Source of the DNA: a virus
DNA length: 11,272 bases
Virus genome (UHGV): UHGV-1554766
Reading direction: 5' to 3' (one strand)
Translations under genes and position numbers: made by a program
Shown here: one piece after another, positions 4,420-11,198 of the stretch
How the letters are laid out: each line of letters starts with the position of its first letter
Numbering within the stretch: position 1 is the first letter of the stretch
The notes under the pieces: model-generated
Seen by the model: only the letters and a program-made list of their open reading frames with translations
What the model was told of the DNA's origin: nothing
Database searches by the model: none

Positions 4420-4430
4420 TGTCTTCTCCC

Positions 4431-4454
4431 AATAAAAATGGGGCCGAAGCCCCA
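4431..4454 (-). terminator. Rho-independent terminator directly downstream of the coat gene
   Basis: Plus strand 4439..4454 tggggc-cgaa-gcccca forms a perfect 6-bp GC-rich stem with a 4-nt loop (UUCG on the minus-strand transcript). On the minus strand it is followed by TTTTTATT (4438..4431). It begins 7 nt after the coat stop codon. Confidence 0.7.
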
Positions 4455-4460
4455 CCAAAA

Positions 4461-5714
4461 TTACTGCCCGGCAATAACGATGCCCGTATATTCAGGAACC
4501 AGTACAGAGCAACCGTACAGAGTGGTGAAACGTGCAGTGGTTACGCCTTTGATGTGGTCGAAGGCGTAAGACATGATCAGCGTAGCGCCCTGCTCGGTGG
4601 TTGCTGTCATTACCTGTGGCCCCTGACCAGTCGGGAATGCCAGTTTGCCGTACATCAGTTCAACAGAACCATCAGCCCAGAATAGGTTAGCCGGTGCTGC
4701 GTTCTTGTTGAGAATGGTGATTGCTGCTGATTCTGCCGGTTTGGCATCGACGTTTGCATATGGACGACTCGCAACATCAGTATTTTCAACAGGGAGAATC
4801 TTTGGAGAAATTGTTACGGTAGTTCCGCTAACAGCCAGAACACGGAATACCTGCGGTTGACCGGTGGTATCTTTTGTGATCTGGTGTACGGAATTCACAC
4901 CGGCAATGGTGAACGCATCACCAACCTGCAAGCCAGATGCAGATACCGTAATAGTCCCCTGTCGGTTATCAACTGGCATACCATTTGAATCTTTCGCTTC
5001 AACCTTGTGTTCAGGTTGGCCTGATACTGTCAAGGATTCAGTGCTTCCTTTCGGTAATCGACCAGAAATATCGGTCTTGTAGCTATCAAAGGACGCAACC
5101 GGAGGGATCTGCGCTTTTTCGTATGCTGTCAGGGTTGCGCCCTGAGCATAGGCACGGTGACCAAGCTCGCCAGCAAGGTCTTTGTAGTTGAAGGGGTTCC
5201 AGAAAGAGCGGCGGTTGATACCCTGTGGTACACCAATCGCCGTCATGGTGGCATCAATACCTGCCGCACAGTTCCACAAATCACGGCCCTGTGAACCAGT
5301 GGTTGAGTCAGCCATTGTGATCACGTTAGTAGCACGCTGCGTGACCATGGAAATCAGGTCAGAGTCAATCTGTGCAGCAAGGCGCATACCTGCGGCTCGA
5401 CCAGCTTCAGTTTTATGTTCCGGGTCACGCATTTCACGCGCATCCAGAGTGTACAGAATGTTTTTCGGCTCCTTGAACACAGAAGGAACAAGGCGCTGAA
5501 CCAGTGCTGTAGGCGTTTTGCCGCTGAGATCGAGGCCTTCTTCAATGTTCATGTGGTAATGCTGCGGACGATACAGAACATCACCTGCTCGCTGCATTGC
5601 TGTATCACCGGGACGGAATTTTTTAGCGTTACGGGAAACTACGCAGGCGGCCTCAAAGCCTTCAACGTAGTTTTCGAACATGATTTCAAGGTCTTTTGCT
5701 AATTGGTTAGCCAT
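4461..5714 (-). CDS. Major capsid (coat) protein, P22 gp5-like, 417 aa
   Basis: ORF track 4461..5714. Size near P22 coat (430 aa). C-terminal segment RPYANVDAKPAESAAITILNKNAAPANLFWADGSVEL resembles P22 coat [37 protein letters not shown] as I recall it. Directly downstream of scaffold as in P22 (8-5). GGAG Shine-Dalgarno upstream; strong terminator after the stop. Confidence 0.9.
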   Translation of the reverse strand: MANQLAKDLEIMFENYVEGFEAACVVSRNAKKFRPGDTAMQRAGDVLYRPQHYHMNIEEGLDLSGKTPTALVQRLVPSVFKEPKNILYTLDAREMRDPEHKTEAGRAAGMRLAAQIDSDLISMVTQRATNVITMADSTTGSQGRDLWNCAAGIDATMTAIGVPQGINRRSFWNPFNYKDLAGELGHRAYAQGATLTAYEKAQIPPVASFDSYKTDISGRLPKGSTESLTVSGQPEHKVEAKDSNGMPVDNRQGTITVSASGLQVGDAFTIAGVNSVHQITKDTTGQPQVFRVLAVSGTTVTISPKILPVENTDVASRPYANVDAKPAESAAITILNKNAAPANLFWADGSVELMYGKLAFPTGQGPQVMTATTEQGATLIMSYAFDHIKGVTTARFTTLYGCSVLVPEYTGIVIAGQ

Positions 5715-5732: not shown

Positions 5733-6626
5733 TTATTTTTTTGCCTTTTTAGCGGCGAAATACGGCGTCCAGTCACCAGTTTCCAGCGCCTTGGCTTTCA
5801 ATTTGTCGAGGTTGTTGATTACTGCGCCGTTGCTCCCCTTAACTGTCGGGGTTGTGGCTGCCGTGGTTTTTGCTTTTGGCATGATTCTGGCCTTCGATTC
5901 GATACGTTCCAGCAGACGACCAATTGCTACGGGGTTGGTAGCTTCTGCCAGTTGCTTGCGCAGTTCAGCGTTGCGACCGAGTGCCAGAACAACGATTTCC
6001 GGCTTCTCTGACTCAAACAGGATCGCGTTTTGTGTCTCGATGGGGATTTCCTCGAGTACGGCCTGTTCTGCTTCCTGATAGCCAGGAACCTTGAGAGCCT
6101 TAACACGTTGCTGATATTTGGATAATCGCTCTTGATAAGCAGCCTGAAGCTCCTGCTCCTTCTGCTTGCGAGCCATCTCCTGTTGCTGGTACTTTCCGTT
6201 ATCCTCTGCCCACTTAGCCATGCGTTGCTGATAGATTTCTTCATCGAAACCGATGTCCTCATCATCCAGTTTTGGCATTCGCGGTGGTTGAGTGATTACC
6301 GGCTGCTGCTCGACGGGTTTCTGAGACTGACGCATCAGCTCTTTCAGCTCGCGGTCTTTCTCTTTAATCGTCTTGCGAAGGTGTTTTACCAGTCCATGCT
6401 CTGCGCCATCTTCGCTGGTTGGCGAATCCAGCTTTTCGTCACCAAAGTAGAATTCCTGTTCTGATTCGTCGTCATCAGTTTCAGTAGCTTCCTCTGCATC
6501 ATTGCCGGAGGACTCACTGCCATCTTCTGTTTCGACTTCTTCAGCCAGTTCGACATCATCAGGAATCTGCTCTGACGCGTCGGTTTCGATTTCAACTTCT
6601 GGTGTGTTTTCTGCCATCTGGTCCAT
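5733..6626 (-). CDS. Scaffolding protein, P22 gp8-like, 297 aa
   Basis: ORF track 5733..6626. Very acidic N-terminal third (D/E-rich), charged central helical region (QQEMARKQKEQELQAAYQERLSKYQQRVKALK) and basic C-terminus (KLKAKALETGDWTPYFAAKKAKK), consistent with a coat-binding C-terminal helix-turn-helix. Size near P22 gp8 (303 aa). Between portal and coat. AGGGG Shine-Dalgarno 6 nt upstream of ATG. Confidence 0.85.
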   Translation of the reverse strand: MDQMAENTPEVEIETDASEQIPDDVELAEEVETEDGSESSGNDAEEATETDDDESEQEFYFGDEKLDSPTSEDGAEHGLVKHLRKTIKEKDRELKELMRQSQKPVEQQPVITQPPRMPKLDDEDIGFDEEIYQQRMAKWAEDNGKYQQQEMARKQKEQELQAAYQERLSKYQQRVKALKVPGYQEAEQAVLEEIPIETQNAILFESEKPEIVVLALGRNAELRKQLAEATNPVAIGRLLERIESKARIMPKAKTTAATTPTVKGSNGAVINNLDKLKAKALETGDWTPYFAAKKAKK

Positions 6627-6716
6627 TTGTTACCCCTGTTTACTCGATGTTCAGCCCATCGGAAGGCAATAGGGTGCCAGGCCTCATAAAGACAGCCATT
6701 GCACGTTATGGGTTAA

Positions 6717-8915
6717 TTACTGCTGTGGTTGTTGCTGAGTTGATTTTTGCAGGATGCTGCTGATGTCCATGCGCTGCGCATGACCCTGTGCCTGACTTTT
6801 CAGGACAAGCTCTGCATCAGCACGGGCATTGTCTCCTTGCTGTTGCTGGAACTGTCCGAGCAGTTTCAGAGCCTCGCGGATATCAGATTTCTGCTGGCTA
6901 TCGGCAGATGCGAGGATTTTCACAACATTTGCCGCTGCAACCTGAGCATCAGTCTGTGCCTGGAATGCTTTAACCTGAATGGCTGCCTGTTCGTTCTGCG
7001 CTTTCTGCAATTCAGCCTGACCAGCAAGAAGCTGACCTTGCGCTGCAACCATAGCCGGATCTGGCTGACTGGCCTGTTGTTGTTTCGCCTGCTCAACCAT
7101 TTGCTGTTCTTCTGGTGTTCTCGGCTTGATAACCCCAGACAGAAGCAACTGATTGCGGTTGTATTCTTTAAGGTCGTCCATCCCTTCGCCGTCCATATTG
7201 TCGAGAATCATCGACGATACAAGGTCGTGTTTCGGCGTTCCTGGCGGGATAAGTGCCAGCATGGAAAGTAACGACTTAACCGTTGCATCACGGCGAGTAG
7301 CGAACGACTGACCGACATCGACAGTCACTTCATAGTTACCCTGCGAAAGGTCATTAAGCGCGATAACCCGCCCTGTCTGACGGTCAACCACTTCACCAGT
7401 CATCAGCGCCACGTCATCGCTGCCGTCCTCATTAACGATACGCATCGGCGTATCACTGCCATAGACTTCACGAGCCATAGAAAGCCACACGACGCCAGCA
7501 CGGCGCATGGATTTAGCCATGTTGTCCATGTAGATATAGGACTGCGTGTCCATCCGGTTAAAGATGCTATCAACGGTATCGGTAGCGACGTTGCTCGGCA
7601 TGTTCTCAAGCTGCGACGCACCTGTAATTTGCTGAATAGCCGTTCCGGTGTACTGCAATAGCCCGGCAAGAGCAGGAGGCATTTGTGTCGGAGGTGTCCA
7701 GCCAGCAACCTGAGCCTCTGAAATGACCGTTCCGTTTTTGTCCTTCTTGCTGGTCATAGGAAGAACTGCAGGTCTTTTCTTATTCCTCTCTGCCCAGTGA
7801 TTCATTAATGGACCGGGAATGAAATCAACATCCACGATAGGAATGCCATCACCGCCCGCCTGAGTAGCGTTATCTGCAATCATGGAAACCATCAGGTTCT
7901 CAAGACGCTGTGCATCCATCGCTTTTGCTGCGTGGCCTTCGATTCGCTCCTGATTATCAACAAATGAACGACGCCCATATACCGGGATGAGAGGAATATG
8001 TTCGCCAGGAATACGCTTCGGTTCTTCCAGCCATTCAGCGCCAGACAGAAGACCGCAATAAACTCTGCGTTTCTTCACTGTCCGCTCACCAATCAGTTCG
8101 AATGCGCCATCGGTCAGCTCGTCGACAATATCTTTGATTTGCTCTTCATCATAGATTGCCGTTTCTCCGCTAACAGGGTTGCGCCATGCCGTGAGCTTCA
8201 CCTTCTCTATGCGAACTTCGTAGTAGCGACCAACATAGATAGCATCAGGGGTTGACCAGTCATATTGAGTGCCAGTGTCATCACGAGAAAGGCTTGCCGC
8301 GATGGAATCAGGGTATTCAGCCTCGAACGCTTTAGGCGTCATGGAGAACATTTCCATAGCCCACATAGCATCAGAGCGGTCATATTGCTTGCTGTCCTGA
8401 TCGAAGAAGACGCATGTGGCCGGGTCGTAAACAGGAAGAAGGCTGATGCGTCGCTGCTCGTTACTTGGGTCCATTTCATCTTCGTAATCGGCACACATGC
8501 GGAAACAACCGAATCCGCCCGTTACAGCATCATCAAATGCGTTATCACACGCTTCGCCACCGGATGTTTCCTGATAGTCAGCGCGGAATTTGCCGTTCAT
8601 CTTTTCGGCTAACGCTTCCGATGCCTTATCGTCCTTCGGCCTGAATTTAACGCTGATGCGATTCTGTCGATACTCGCCAATGATGCGATCACATTCACGG
8701 GCAATCTTATTCAGTTCAAAGCGCGGGTAATGCTCAAACCTTCCTTCATCAAATGAGTAACCAGCGTTTGTGCTGCCTTCCCACTGTGCGCCGGACACCC
8801 GGACGAAACGTTGAGCCTCAATAATCTGCTCACGCATATCCTGCGTTGCTGACCAGGCATTATCAAAGTTGCACAGCACCTTGCGATGCCAGTCAGTCAT
8901 CTTTTTTTCTGCCAT
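6717..8915 (-). CDS. Portal protein, P22 gp1-like, 732 aa, with C-terminal Gln-rich helical barrel
   Basis: Several segments match P22 portal as I recall it: GEHIPLIPVYG versus GEHIPIVPVFG, and KPRTPEEQQMVEQAKQQQASQPDPAMVAAQGQLLAGQAELQKAQNEQ versus [47 protein letters not shown]. Size near P22 gp1 (725 aa). Start is 1 nt after the large terminase stop. Confidence 0.95.
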   Translation of the reverse strand: MAEKKMTDWHRKVLCNFDNAWSATQDMREQIIEAQRFVRVSGAQWEGSTNAGYSFDEGRFEHYPRFELNKIARECDRIIGEYRQNRISVKFRPKDDKASEALAEKMNGKFRADYQETSGGEACDNAFDDAVTGGFGCFRMCADYEDEMDPSNEQRRISLLPVYDPATCVFFDQDSKQYDRSDAMWAMEMFSMTPKAFEAEYPDSIAASLSRDDTGTQYDWSTPDAIYVGRYYEVRIEKVKLTAWRNPVSGETAIYDEEQIKDIVDELTDGAFELIGERTVKKRRVYCGLLSGAEWLEEPKRIPGEHIPLIPVYGRRSFVDNQERIEGHAAKAMDAQRLENLMVSMIADNATQAGGDGIPIVDVDFIPGPLMNHWAERNKKRPAVLPMTSKKDKNGTVISEAQVAGWTPPTQMPPALAGLLQYTGTAIQQITGASQLENMPSNVATDTVDSIFNRMDTQSYIYMDNMAKSMRRAGVVWLSMAREVYGSDTPMRIVNEDGSDDVALMTGEVVDRQTGRVIALNDLSQGNYEVTVDVGQSFATRRDATVKSLLSMLALIPPGTPKHDLVSSMILDNMDGEGMDDLKEYNRNQLLLSGVIKPRTPEEQQMVEQAKQQQASQPDPAMVAAQGQLLAGQAELQKAQNEQAAIQVKAFQAQTDAQVAAANVVKILASADSQQKSDIREALKLLGQFQQQQGDNARADAELVLKSQAQGHAQRMDISSILQKSTQQQPQQ

Positions 8916-8916
8916 A

Positions 8917-10332
8917 TCAACCTACACCACAAGGAATTGAGTAACTGGAATAGTCGGGTTGCGCAGCCGACTCCGGGCAATGCATACACATCATCAGCGC
9001 ATCAGCCAGGTTAGGAGATGGAATACCGAGCTTCTGCTTCATTTCGACCTTAGTCATTAGCTCCAGCTTCCCGTTGTTATTGAATTTGCGCTGAATCTGC
9101 GTCAGTTCTGCAAACAGCTTCTCCAGCATCTTCTCGCCTATCGCTTCTTTGTCGAAACTCAGCATGTCGTCGGGGTCTGCATACTCACCGTGAACAACCG
9201 CCCGATATGTCAGATACAGCCTGTCAGCCAGCGCGTAATAGAATTGCGCTCGCTTATTGCGGAACACATCGCCAATAGTGCGAACGTTGTCGCCCTGTAC
9301 GACTTCATCAGCCCATGCCCCGGCCTGATACGGCGCATCTTCATCGAATGGCGATTCGCTACCCTTGAACATCGTGGCGGTGATTTTCTTGCCGGAGAAC
9401 GCTTCCGTTGTCTGTCTGCGTAGCCCAGCACCAACACCATCACCATCCCACAGGTAATGGTCAGCGCCGTCTTCAATCGCCAGCGAAGTAGCCCAGTCAG
9501 CACCCTCGTTGATGTCCATCAGCAGACCTTCGGCAATGCGCTTAACCACCGAACCGTGACGCGATGCGTAACCTTTAGCATCTGGCCCTGTATCTGACGG
9601 GTCATGTGCAGAAACAACCGCGCCTTTCGCTTTCCATCCGAGTTTCTTGTGCGCATCGGTTGCGGCTTCAAGCCATTCACGTTTGATGATTGCCATATCA
9701 CTTGCGCTTACTGGCTCACCAAGCCAGATGTGACGATACAGTGTCGGGTTTCTGCGTTTACACTCTTCCATCTCCAGACGGAGAACTTCAGGAAAGTGCG
9801 GGTTGTCGGTGTAGTTCACCGTCAGCAGACAAATATCATCGGGAGGATTTACGACGAATCGCTGATAGGTATCGTCGAGGATGTTTTTTGGGTTAAAGCT
9901 CACCCATATTTCAGAGAACGGCTTACGGATGGTTGGTATCAGGATATCCCATGATTCCTTCGTTACCGCTTCCGCTTCTTCCACCCAGCAGATATCAATG
10001 CCTTCGAGCGATTTAATCTTCGTCGGGTTGTTTTTGATGCCGTAGAACATGAATTCAGCATTCGTTCCGAGATGACGAATCATTGAACGCTGAATTTCAA
10101 ACTCAGCCGAATACCCTTCACGCTCTATGGTGTCTTCAAGCAACCGGATTACCGAATCGCTGATACTGTTTTGCAGTTCACGAGCGCAGAGAATACGCAC
10201 AGGCTGCCGACGCGCCGCTTCAACAAGCAGCCTCGCAATTGCCCATGACTTACCGCTACCTCGACCGCCTTTGGCGACTTTGTAGCGATGCGCCTCAATG
10301 AACGGTTCAAAGATAGGATTAATCGAGGTCAT
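8917..10332 (-). CDS. terL: Terminase large subunit (ATPase/nuclease), Sf6 gp2-like, 471 aa
   Basis: N-terminal Walker A P-loop (VAKGGRGSGKSWA). Size matches Sf6 gp2 (about 470 aa as I recall). Acidic C-terminal half consistent with an RNase H-like nuclease domain. Start overlaps small terminase stop (ATGA). Immediately upstream of portal. Confidence 0.93.
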   Translation of the reverse strand: MTSINPIFEPFIEAHRYKVAKGGRGSGKSWAIARLLVEAARRQPVRILCARELQNSISDSVIRLLEDTIEREGYSAEFEIQRSMIRHLGTNAEFMFYGIKNNPTKIKSLEGIDICWVEEAEAVTKESWDILIPTIRKPFSEIWVSFNPKNILDDTYQRFVVNPPDDICLLTVNYTDNPHFPEVLRLEMEECKRRNPTLYRHIWLGEPVSASDMAIIKREWLEAATDAHKKLGWKAKGAVVSAHDPSDTGPDAKGYASRHGSVVKRIAEGLLMDINEGADWATSLAIEDGADHYLWDGDGVGAGLRRQTTEAFSGKKITATMFKGSESPFDEDAPYQAGAWADEVVQGDNVRTIGDVFRNKRAQFYYALADRLYLTYRAVVHGEYADPDDMLSFDKEAIGEKMLEKLFAELTQIQRKFNNNGKLELMTKVEMKQKLGIPSPNLADALMMCMHCPESAAQPDYSSYSIPCGVG

Positions 10333-10751
10333 TTTCCGAATAGAGTGCTCATCGGTGATGTTTCAATCTGAATTGCGCCGCCGTCCTTACCGACAAGCTC
10401 GTTAGTTACCTTGTCGCCATACTTACGGGGATTCATTCGGGCCAGCGCCCATTTGCGGGTATCAACGCGAAGTCTTGCCTTTGCCACCTCAGCAGCATCT
10501 GGAATCGCATTGTCAGCAATTTCGAATATCTCTTCGAAAATAGAATCAGCTCGTGCCTCAGTTGCCTTCGCGTACTTGTCGCGAAAATCCTCATGCTTTG
10601 CCAACCAGCGGAAAACAGTGGACTTATCCGGCATACCAGGACGCTTACATACTTTCAGCAAACTTTCGCCAGAAGAAAGCAACGAGCAGATATCGTCAGC
10701 CACCTCCGGCATATAATCAGAGGGGCGACCAGCTTTTGGTTCAGTCGCCAT
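10329..10751 (-). CDS. terS: Terminase small subunit, Sf6 gp1-like, 140 aa from ATG 10751 (alternative in-frame ATG at 10757 gives 142 aa)
   Basis: Sequence MATEPKAGRPSDYMPEVADDICSLLSSGESLLKVCKRPGMPDKSTVFRWLAKHEDFRDKYAKATEARADSIFEEIFEIADN matches my recollection of Sf6 gp1 (140 aa, helix-turn-helix DNA-binding domain). The second ATG has better Shine-Dalgarno spacing (GAG about 8 nt upstream). 4-nt overlap with terL. Confidence 0.88.
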   Translation of the reverse strand: MATEPKAGRPSDYMPEVADDICSLLSSGESLLKVCKRPGMPDKSTVFRWLAKHEDFRDKYAKATEARADSIFEEIFEIADNAIPDAAEVAKARLRVDTRKWALARMNPRKYGDKVTNELVGKDGGAIQIETSPMSTLFGK

Positions 10752-10774
10752 ATTCATCTCACTTAATTGTCATT

Positions 10775-10954
10775 TCAGGCTGAGGACTCTTTCGCGCCTT
10801 CAATCAGTGACTGCTTCAGTAATTCGAGTGTACCAATCGCCTCGCATAAACTGATTTCACCATCGTAATCATGGATGACGCTTTCCAGTCGCTCGTATAG
10901 CTCTTGAGTAATTGGGAATTTCTTCTCCTTACCCAAATTGATTACGCGGCTCAC
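10775..10954 (-). CDS. Possible small ORF, 59 codons, GTG-initiated, hypothetical protein (may correspond to the small ORF that precedes gene 3 in P22-like phages)
   Basis: Hand translation: GTG at 10954..10952 preceded by GGAG with a 6-nt spacer (ccGGAGcatgatGTG); open to TGA at 10777..10775. Product (M/V)SRVINLGKEKKFPITQELYERLESVIHDYDGEISLCEAIGTLELLKQSLIEGAKESSA. Start region overlaps the stop of the upstream 80-aa ORF. Below the ORF-track length cutoff and has a non-ATG start, so uncertain. Confidence 0.3.
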   Translation of the reverse strand: MSRVINLGKEKKFPITQELYERLESVIHDYDGEISLCEAIGTLELLKQSLIEGAKESSA

Positions 10955-10955
10955 A

Positions 10956-11198
10956 TCATGCTCCGGTGGTGAACAGGTCTAACGCTTCCTTCGATTTACG
11001 CACCGCTTCGATAGTGCGGGTCGTGATATCTGAATTAGCGCCACCTGACTGGAAGTGAATTTTGAATAGCTCAAGCTTCAGCTCGTCAGTGCCAATGAAT
11101 TGAAATGCTTCTTCTGCGGCTGCGTTCTGGTTCATGACCAGTTTGTAAATCTCTAACTGGAATTTCTGTTCTTCAGTCATGGGAATAATCTCTGCCAT
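10956..11198 (-). CDS. Hypothetical 80-aa protein upstream of the terminase genes (size and position reminiscent of P22 orf80)
   Basis: ORF track 10956..11198. GGAG Shine-Dalgarno 6 nt upstream of ATG (acGGAGccaacaATG). Same strand as the operon. Function unknown. Confidence 0.55.
   Translation of the reverse strand: MAEIIPMTEEQKFQLEIYKLVMNQNAAAEEAFQFIGTDELKLELFKIHFQSGGANSDITTRTIEAVRKSKEALDLFTTGA

Follow-up and report, generated by a model that had tools for sequence, protein, structure and literature searches.

A conserved pseudoknot in the scaffold gene leader of P22-like phages, a candidate cis-acting control element

Introduction

What occupies the untranslated gap between the portal and the scaffold gene in the virus genome UHGV-1554766, and does this spacer serve a function? 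The stretch analyzed here, referred to as the window, comprises 11,272 nucleotides (nt) of this genome and carries all of its genes on the minus strand. The portal open reading frame (ORF, 6717..8915) ends with a UAA codon at 6719-6717, the scaffold ORF (5733..6626) begins with an AUG at 6626-6624, and between them lies a spacer of exactly 90 nt (6627..6716). The scaffold start cannot move upstream, because an in-frame UAA is found two codons before the AUG and the start is preceded by a Shine-Dalgarno sequence, AGGGG. Over the spacer region, the sequence is 100% identical to Shigella phage Sf101, whose annotation shows the same two genes and the same gap. CUS-3, Kapi1, Huey and further phages match the region with an identity of at least 98.6% and are likewise annotated with the portal followed by the scaffold. 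The window is a CUS-3/Sf101-type P22-like prophage.

Autoregulation of the P22 scaffolding protein is a classic case of assembly-coupled gene control, and its RNA target has, to our knowledge, never been defined. According to Casjens & Adams (1985) and Wyckoff & Casjens (1985), as cited in PMC5529062, synthesis of the P22 scaffold is autoregulated post-transcriptionally by the unassembled scaffold protein, and the N-terminus of this protein has been implicated in translational autoregulation (bioRxiv 10.1101/2022.12.13.520362). In this study, we describe an RNA pseudoknot in the spacer, which recurs with different stem sequences directly in front of the scaffold gene in a wide range of P22-like phages.

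Results

Covariation supports an H-type pseudoknot in the scaffold leader

We are highly confident that the 3' half of the spacer folds as a conserved H-type pseudoknot at 6668-6642 on the minus strand. The element reads (U)GCC-UUC-CGAUG-GGC(U)-GAA-CAUCG-AGU, corresponding to stem 1 (S1), loop 1 (L1), stem 2 (S2), the return of S1, loop 3 (L3), the return of S2 and a tail. S1 comprises only 3 base pairs (bp) in the window, since two U residues oppose each other as a mismatch at its fourth position. S2 ends 18 nt before the scaffold AUG, and the element about 7 nt before the Shine-Dalgarno sequence. An earlier note on this DNA had recognized no more than short 4-bp inverted repeats in the spacer. 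This understated the 5-bp stem CGAUG/CAUCG and was correct in that folding of the single sequence is unremarkable, being no better than for shuffled sequences (z = +1.33). The nested minimum-energy fold, obtained with ViennaRNA, which does not predict pseudoknots, contains S2 alone. It is the comparison with related sequences that brings out the signal.

The same topology with differing stem sequences is present in lytic enteric phages, in phages of Ralstonia, Pseudomonas, Shewanella and Sphingopyxis, in APSE-1 and Sf6, and in about 75 environmental contigs. Among relatives, S1 is formed by UGCC/GGCA, CGCC/GGCG, CCC/GGG, GCUC/GAGC, GUCC/GGAC, ACGGC/GCCGU and other pairs. For example, CGCC-AC-CGAUG-GGCG is found in Murrayvirus (IME_EC2, ST231, Lumpael), Sortsne and Kc237, an S1 of CCC/GGG in Skarpretter, C130_2 and STP9, and GUCC/GGAC in the Shewanella phage ZP9. 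Locus L139, with a scaffold 42% identical and a 112-nt gap, carries GCUC-UC-CGGUG-GAGC-UAAU-CACUG-AGU. Similarly, the element reads UGCUU-UC-CGCG-GAGCA-UGAAG-CGCG-AGU in the Ralstonia phage Firinga and AGGC-AUC-CAUCA-GCCU-CAA-UGAUG-AGU in the Pseudomonas phage PfAn1.

Close relatives of the window were uninformative for covariation. They comprised 11 phage records, 421 E. coli genomes and, out of 283 viral contigs, the 80 best, with an identity of 96.5% or more throughout. Plain MAFFT placed loop 1 out of register; loops were padded with N, and the alignments were registered by hand or by descriptor. In an alignment of 20 enteric sequences, 96.7% of the cells assigned to pairs do pair, compared with 17-44% when the partner strand is slid. 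Four of the nine pairs change on both sides, and the observed covariation was reached by none of 500 shuffles (0/500).

In addition, we took 80 environmental P22-like scaffold loci, 43-83% identical to the Firinga scaffold, from a search with a four-sequence scaffold alignment as query. A first descriptor allowed 3-5 bp in S1 and 4-6 bp in S2, with 1-4 nt in L1 and 2-12 nt in L3, and required NGU after the fold and an in-frame start after that. It matches 57 of these 80 leaders, and a descriptor score of at least 12 is reached by 72% of the real leaders vs 0.2% of dinucleotide shuffles. Nearly all loci missed by this descriptor keep the fold with an AGA or AGC tail or with one mismatch. A slightly relaxed version is positive in 104/109 leaders, two of which (P22 and L192) are spurious. 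Among the resulting 63 distinct elements, S1 occurs as 31 and S2 as 27 different helices, with changes on both sides in 10 of 12 pairs (S1 5/5, S2 5/7). Cells with such double changes number 197 against 47 +/- 8.5 in shuffles, a count inflated by kinship among the environmental sequences, of which the 27-31 distinct helices are independent. The covariation score amounts to 0.71 vs 0.18 in shuffles, and slid controls pair in 26-43%. Our argument rests on the shuffle null of the first descriptor and on the number of distinct helices.

A few positions hardly vary across these elements. The first pair of S2 is C:G in 63/63 elements, while the other S2 positions show three to five pair types each, and the last nucleotide of L1 is C in all 57 matches of the descriptor that does not require it. 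The first tail position is A in 57 and C in 6 of the 63 elements, followed by a G that the relaxed descriptor demands. Judging from this pattern, the invariants probably fit an extra C:G pair below S2 together with a bulged A. L1 measures 2-3 nt (1-2 nt if its last C pairs) and L2 0 nt in the 63 elements; L3 has 3-6 nt in 62 of them and consists of A to 49%. A short L1, an L2 near zero and an A-rich L3 of 3-6 nt are typical of H-type pseudoknots. As expected of this class, the two helices cross, with the 5' strand of S2 inside the loop of S1, both of them display changes on both sides, and the loop lengths permit the fold. A covariance model of the enteric sequences gave only a sub-threshold match at the pseudoknot of Sf6 (L002 1275-1326; 12.1 bits, E = 0.79). 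Models based on sequence miss most of this pseudoknot family.

The pseudoknot is tied to the scaffold start codon

The position of the element is linked to the scaffold gene. With the enteric covariance model, each locus yielded a single copy, which invariably lay directly before the scaffold gene. In 102 leaders, S2 ends 12-26 nt ahead of the start codon, most often 17-19 nt. In Murray-, Skarpretter-, Sortsne- and Hungariovirus, two to four small genes are located between portal and scaffold, and the pseudoknot still lies directly before the scaffold. The pseudoknot is tied to the scaffold start codon and not to the portal gene or the gap. In these lytic phages, the small genes are followed by a terminator-like hairpin with a U-run, a promoter-like site and then the pseudoknot. 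In Skarpretter, the promoter-like site TTGCCA-18-TACACT, located 12 nt upstream of the pseudoknot, was called by a tool; those of the other lytic phages were recognized by eye. In these four groups of phages, scaffold and coat are probably transcribed together, as a separate unit. The hairpin and promoter-like site upstream of the pseudoknot can be seen in loci L142 (2634-2660) and L151 (1174-1196 and 1218-1247) and also in L141 and L152-L155.

Phages with a short portal-scaffold gap accommodate the element differently. The portal-scaffold gap is 13 nt both in P22 (3880-3892 of NC_002371) and in Sf6. In Sf6, the fold AGUC-AC-CGGCA-GACU-UAA-UGCCG-AGU is embedded in the last codons of the portal gene, with the portal stop codon directly after it, and NM-3, phiSG1 and the Sphingopyxis phage VSN-002 similarly carry the fold inside the portal ORF. 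In APSE-1, it is located in a 50-nt gap and reads AGUU-AC-CUGCG-GACU-UCU-CGCAG-AGU. In P22, ST-35, ST-87 and IME10, C-CGGC...GCCG-AG is retained at a distance of 27 nt from the AUG, corresponding to S2 and its invariant CC/GAG base; in P22, this hairpin lies within the final part of gene 1. An S1 could not be detected in these four P22-type phages, where the loop is too short and a complement is lacking.

Gap length differs among phages with the same gene order because the element sits either in a spacer or overprinted on the end of the portal gene, which holds whatever its function. In the window, the gap measures 90 nt because the element lies outside the portal ORF in this clade and about 45 nt were gained. 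The proteins of the window are distant from those of P22, with 35% identity for the portal and 28% for the scaffold over a partial alignment. The 90-nt spacer itself cannot be the autoregulation element of P22, because the gap of this phage has only 13 nt.

The spacer is conserved among CUS-3-type phages

In a protein search, scaffold homologues form a graded series of 50-90% identity, and their hosts belong to Escherichia, Salmonella, Citrobacter, Serratia, Providencia, Xenorhabdus, Yersinia and Symbiopectobacterium. The portal-scaffold gap measures 86-97 nt in 27/27 CUS-3-type loci fetched from eight genera, with length differences amounting to single bases. The last 70 nt of the spacer, referred to as the core, are 80-89% identical between relatives and the window, compared with 55-83% for the last 300 nt of the portal gene and 61-77% for the first 300 nt of the scaffold gene. 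Conservation is poor over the first 20 nt of the spacer (Table 1). Within the CUS-3 clade, the stems hardly vary, and the outermost S1 pair alternates between U-A and the U-U mismatch. The linker at 6680-6669 differs between genera and harbors most of the natural variants.

Within E. coli, the spacer is nearly invariant and was found in 421/5426 complete genomes with 96.5-100% identity over 451 nt. A map of population variation, the sole use made of near-identical copies, was drawn from 83 of them. It shows 9/90 variable columns in the spacer, as against 18% in the portal and 21% in the coat gene. Five of the nine variable spacer columns fall at 6672-6679, none falls in either stem, L1, the tail or the Shine-Dalgarno sequence, and the lone variant within the pseudoknot region is at 6652 in L3. 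A scan of genome contigs with the scaffold protein gave two loci, both from Escherichia, and a pattern scan of metagenomes gave six. Recombination does occur near the spacer: from one relative to the next, identity to the window changes for the portal independently of that for the scaffold. Altogether, we conclude from these comparisons that the spacer is under selection.

Clade-specific structure and rejected alternatives

In the CUS-3 clade, the 5' part of the core may add a hairpin, P1, found with RNAalifold. Its stem GCYgUC/GAGGC (6696-6681) pairs in 98.9% of cells vs 31-57% for slid controls; the 5-nt loop varies in sequence, and the stem changes only between C and U opposite G, with covariation that is not significant. 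This hairpin is compatible with the data and not proven. Further helices were considered and rejected: a GGCA/UGCC pairing, the hairpin CCUAUUG/CGAUGGG suggested by RNAalifold and a helix ACCCU/GGGGU over the Shine-Dalgarno sequence are each either impossible in other phage groups or broken in several lineages. A conformational switch specific to the CUS-3 clade may exist.

The spacer could also be the decayed C-terminus of a longer portal protein or a frameshifted ORF. This was rejected, since stop codons shut all three frames within its first 11 nt (6719-6706 including the portal stop), and the portal protein already aligns to near the end of the P22 portal. A stimulator of -1 programmed frameshifting was likewise dismissed, given that the element of the window lies in untranslated sequence behind these stops. 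By eye, neither a CsrA-type GGA motif nor an RNase E consensus at the tail nor a Shine-Dalgarno-like role for the 3' strand of S2 is general across the family. The descriptor based on the invariants also matches the window at 6850-6879 on the plus strand (score 11.5) and at 2495-2467 on the minus strand (score 9.0). These are probably chance matches, located within or antisense to coding sequence without the context of a Shine-Dalgarno sequence and start codon.

Organization of the window

The features of the spacer and the neighboring genes are listed in Table 1. Along the operon, the junctions measure -4, 1, 90, 18, 41, -20, 9, -1, -1 and 2 nt. The earlier note had described a 90-nt gap between portal and scaffold, which the ORF ends confirm, and had called it the only sizeable spacer of the operon, with all other junctions below 25 nt. 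It is indeed the largest junction; the second part does not hold for the 41 nt between the coat gene and the next ORF, nor for 198 nt before the small terminase gene. The latter stretch (10758-10955), longer than the 90-nt spacer, separates an 80-amino-acid ORF (10956-11198) from the small terminase gene at the head of the operon and contains only a GTG-started ORF of 59 amino acids (10775-10954).

Table 1 Features of the portal-scaffold spacer and selected genes of the window.
Feature	Position	Strand	Remarks
Poorly conserved 5' part, UUAACCCAUAACGUGCAAUG	6697..6716	minus	46-76% identity to relatives
Hairpin P1, clade-specific	6681..6696	minus	GCUgUC 6696-6691, loop UUUAU 6690-6686, GAGGC 6685-6681; RNAalifold
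Linker, CUGGCACCCUAU	6669..6680	minus	5' part least constrained in core; CUAU invariant within clade
Stem 1, 5' strand, (U)GCC	6665..6668	minus	pairs with 6656-6653
Loop 1, UUC	6662..6664	minus	last C invariant; can pair with G of AGU tail
Stem 2, 5' strand, CGAUG	6657..6661	minus	pairs with 6649-6645
Stem 1, 3' strand, GGC(U)	6653..6656	minus	no spacer after stem 2 5' strand
Loop 3, (U)GAA	6650..6652	minus	
Stem 2, 3' strand, CAUCG	6645..6649	minus	
Conserved tail, AGU	6642..6644	minus	A probably bulged; G probably pairs with invariant C of loop 1
Initiation region of scaffold gene	6624..6641	minus	A-rich spacer AAAC, Shine-Dalgarno AGGGG 6637-6633, UAACAA, scaffold AUG 6626-6624
19-codon ORF, MAVFMRPGTLLPSDGLNIE	6640..6699	minus	overlaps element; judged not a gene
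Coat gene	4461-5714	minus	head-completion genes follow in gene order
Large terminase gene	8917-10332	minus	
Small terminase gene	10329-10757	minus	

In agreement with the earlier note, which had seen no convincing sigma70 promoter, a scan of 6300-7100 gave no promoter-like site on either strand. The same scan found no intrinsic terminator in the spacer, its sole terminator-like site being on the other strand inside the portal gene, and no relevant Rfam family matched at E <= 10 across 6300-7000. The 41-nt gap behind the coat gene (window 4420-4460) contains a strong GC hairpin at 4456-4437 on the minus strand, GGUGGGGC-UUCG-GCCCCAUU, followed by the U-run UUUUUAUU. It resembles an intrinsic terminator, as do the 't coat' stem-loops annotated for Sf6 and P22, and the scaffold-coat segment is bracketed by the pseudoknot and this hairpin. 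In the Sphingopyxis phage VSN-002 (L162 2134-2252), a long GC hairpin, GGUGCGAGGGGG...CCUCCUCGCAUC, is found in a 119-nt gap between scaffold and coat. Besides that, the ORF right after the coat gene matches Pfam PF11195 (Tad2-like) in an uncultured contig (L089 2778-3017) and in a Xenorhabdus prophage (L106 3681-3894). These ORFs, at the place of a 62-amino-acid ORF in the window, are a possible anti-defence insertion.

Discussion

Since the fold is conserved, is linked to the ribosome-binding sites of a single gene family and bears a small sequence-specific feature at the base of S2, we infer that it is a cis-acting control element, which would act on the scaffold message through control of initiation or of mRNA lifetime. 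As in autogenous operators, a structured leader lies near the ribosome-binding site that would be regulated, in the window as in the other leaders. The spacer as a whole would then be a structured 5' leader of the scaffold gene whose pseudoknot acts in cis, most likely as the operator for scaffold autoregulation, a statement to which we give, in its entirety, a little under an even chance. A mechanism can be sketched as follows. Free, unassembled scaffolding protein would bind the pseudoknot and recognize the invariant base of S2 (C:G, bulged A, C:G); once bound, the protein would either obstruct the 30S subunit at the neighboring ribosome-binding site or trap it there, and the untranslated scaffold message, probably the scaffold-coat message, would be left open to decay. 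We infer the scaffold protein as the ligand, and the broader proposal, that the whole pseudoknot family constitutes the RNA operator by which unassembled scaffolding protein shuts off its own translation, is put forward tentatively, as possible and somewhat short of probable.

The earlier note had suggested the leader of the scaffold message as a plausible regulatory site and had looked to conservation among relatives as the touchstone. The suggestion is borne out in so far as a conserved, covarying structure ends 18 nt before the AUG, and the spacer is conserved in length (86-97 nt) and in sequence, with a core above its coding flanks, among CUS-3-type relatives. It does not carry over to P22-like phages in general, where P22 and Sf6 have 13-nt gaps, and the link to autoregulation is a proposal. 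Several observations weigh against an operator. The P22-type phages, the only ones with measured autoregulation, keep the S2 hairpin alone. In several relatives, a promoter-like site is found no more than about 7-12 nt from the element, which would place it at the very start of the mRNA, a position that fits a constitutive stabilizer equally well. In the window, S1 has only 3 bp and the single-sequence fold does not exceed shuffles, and the 100% pairing in the alignment of 63 elements arises by construction from a descriptor that demands pairing.

Such a stabilizer or insulator, which together with the operator is one of the two models that best fit the data, would act without a dedicated protein ligand. 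The pseudoknot would shield the scaffold-coat transcript from 5'-end-dependent or scanning attack by RNase E, keep the ribosome-binding site free of long-range pairing and, together with the post-coat hairpin, give rise to a long-lived, heavily translated message. An ompA-type 5'-terminal position may apply to lytic relatives, where the element follows a terminator-like hairpin and begins about 7-12 nt past a promoter-like site. In addition to the Skarpretter site and one seen by eye in Murrayvirus, TTGCTA-N18-TAATAT is found by eye 6-7 nt upstream of S1 in ZP9 (L161 about 1300-1335) and in the uncultured phage L139 (about 2925-2955). The GC hairpin and U-run right after the coat gene in the window, a feature also annotated in P22 and Sf6, would complete the picture, and the freedom of almost all stem positions to covary is what one would expect if shape matters more than sequence. 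However, neither the window nor Sf6-type phages show a promoter at this place, so that the 5' end would need processing, and stabilization alone would not account for the element having been retained within the portal ORF of Sf6. The invariant base of S2 and the narrow distance to the start codon rather suggest specific recognition tied to initiation, and because of these two features we favor the operator over constitutive stabilization, which we consider possible but less probable.

The remaining explanations are far less probable. An RNA site linked to assembly, where portal and/or scaffold protein would dock on the late mRNA and couple scaffold translation to nucleation of the portal vertex, would suit the location at the portal-scaffold junction in temperate members, and an interaction of portal protein with mRNA, referenced to work of 1990, is raised among the proposed mechanisms of P22 portal incorporation. 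In lytic relatives, however, several genes, a terminator-like hairpin and a promoter-like site separate the element from the portal gene, making this reading very unlikely. A new small-molecule riboswitch controlling the adjacent ribosome-binding site would resemble the preQ1-I and guanidine-III classes in size, H-type topology, A-rich L3 and proximity to the Shine-Dalgarno sequence. Against it, no Rfam model matches even at permissive E-values, about five invariant nucleotides and covariation at nearly every stem position leave no conserved ligand pocket, and a capsid scaffold as the regulated gene has no evident metabolite logic; we regard it as highly improbable. The same applies to the view that the spacer was left behind as a neutral remnant when portal and scaffold modules recombined in mosaic fashion, or that it works at the level of DNA, for instance as a promoter, as a terminator or in protein binding. 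This view would agree with the independently varying identities of the two genes and the poorly conserved first 20 nt. It is already contradicted by conservation and covariation, as the core is more conserved than the neighboring coding DNA and the changes are compensatory as RNA pairs, including strand-specific G-U pairs; moreover, the spacer contains neither a promoter-like nor a terminator-like site. Least credible of all is a leader peptide or small protein of 19 residues (6699-6640). An ORF from ATG to TAA is present, and one of 19 codons can be read at the same place in some relatives (e.g., L090 and L096). However, it has no Shine-Dalgarno sequence, its ATG is lost in L089, L102, L107 and L109, its frame or end is changed in L092 and L100, and spacer lengths of 86, 87, 88, 89, 90, 93, 94 and 97 nt differ by non-multiples of three. 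Population variants comprise five non-synonymous vs two synonymous changes, and RNA pairing explains the conserved blocks. What is conserved in the spacer is accordingly non-coding.

The pseudoknot family appears to be new, although leader pseudoknots at ribosome-binding sites are well known as a kind. We found no Rfam 15 match at E <= 1 in 15 loci carrying the element, nothing annotated at its place in the GenBank records of P22, Sf6 and Sf101, and no description of it, or of an RNA target of scaffold autoregulation, in the full-text literature searched, whose coverage excludes most subscription journals, so that an older description is possible. For P22-like phages, the analysis supplies a concrete, covariation-backed candidate target of about 30 nt, and the full element is carried by Sf6, CUS-3/Sf101 and several easily grown lytic coliphages. 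If the operator reading is true, the state of capsid assembly would be coupled to gene expression in P22-like phages, and this coupling would span phages of Enterobacterales, Pseudomonas, Ralstonia, Shewanella and Sphingopyxis as well as many uncultured ones. The element would add a structured RNA family to phage biology and can be used in annotation to mark scaffold gene starts. It also illustrates two ways of keeping an RNA structure: the window reserves a spacer for it, and in Sf6 it is overprinted on the final portal codons. The element may further serve as a compact translational control part in P22-based capsid or nanocage expression systems.

Several known systems share parts of this design. 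As with the preQ1-I and guanidine-III riboswitches, an H-type pseudoknot of roughly 30-40 nt with an A-rich third loop is located beside the Shine-Dalgarno sequence, but the phage element gives no covariance-model match and offers hardly any conserved nucleotides for a ligand pocket. In the leaders of E. coli rpsO (S15) and other ribosomal protein genes, a small pseudoknot at the ribosome-binding site is stabilized by the protein and traps or excludes the 30S subunit; those folds enclose the Shine-Dalgarno sequence or the AUG and imitate rRNA, whereas here both lie outside the fold, and no rRNA mimicry was noticed, although no search was directed at it. The coat-protein operators of the single-stranded RNA phages MS2 and PP7 are simple hairpins that contain the start codon and in which a bulged adenine is key. 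They resemble the present element in that a capsid-assembly protein represses the gene there and in the bulged A, which we propose to lie between two invariant C:G pairs; unlike them, the present element is a pseudoknot upstream of the ribosome-binding site and occurs in double-stranded DNA phages. T4 gene 32 is likewise a phage gene with an H-type pseudoknot in its leader. That pseudoknot nucleates cooperative coating of the unstructured leader by a single-stranded nucleic-acid-binding protein, and the gene product limits its own translation once its normal binding partner is saturated. However, the T4 pseudoknot lies further upstream, whereas the element described here abuts the Shine-Dalgarno sequence, 12-26 nt from the AUG, and its candidate ligand is a capsid scaffold without known RNA-binding activity. 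P22 autoregulation itself is a post-transcriptional control of the homologous gene, which occupies the corresponding place among the late genes; P22 has the S2 hairpin only, whereas CUS-3-, Sf6- and APSE-type phages, along with many more, carry the full pseudoknot.

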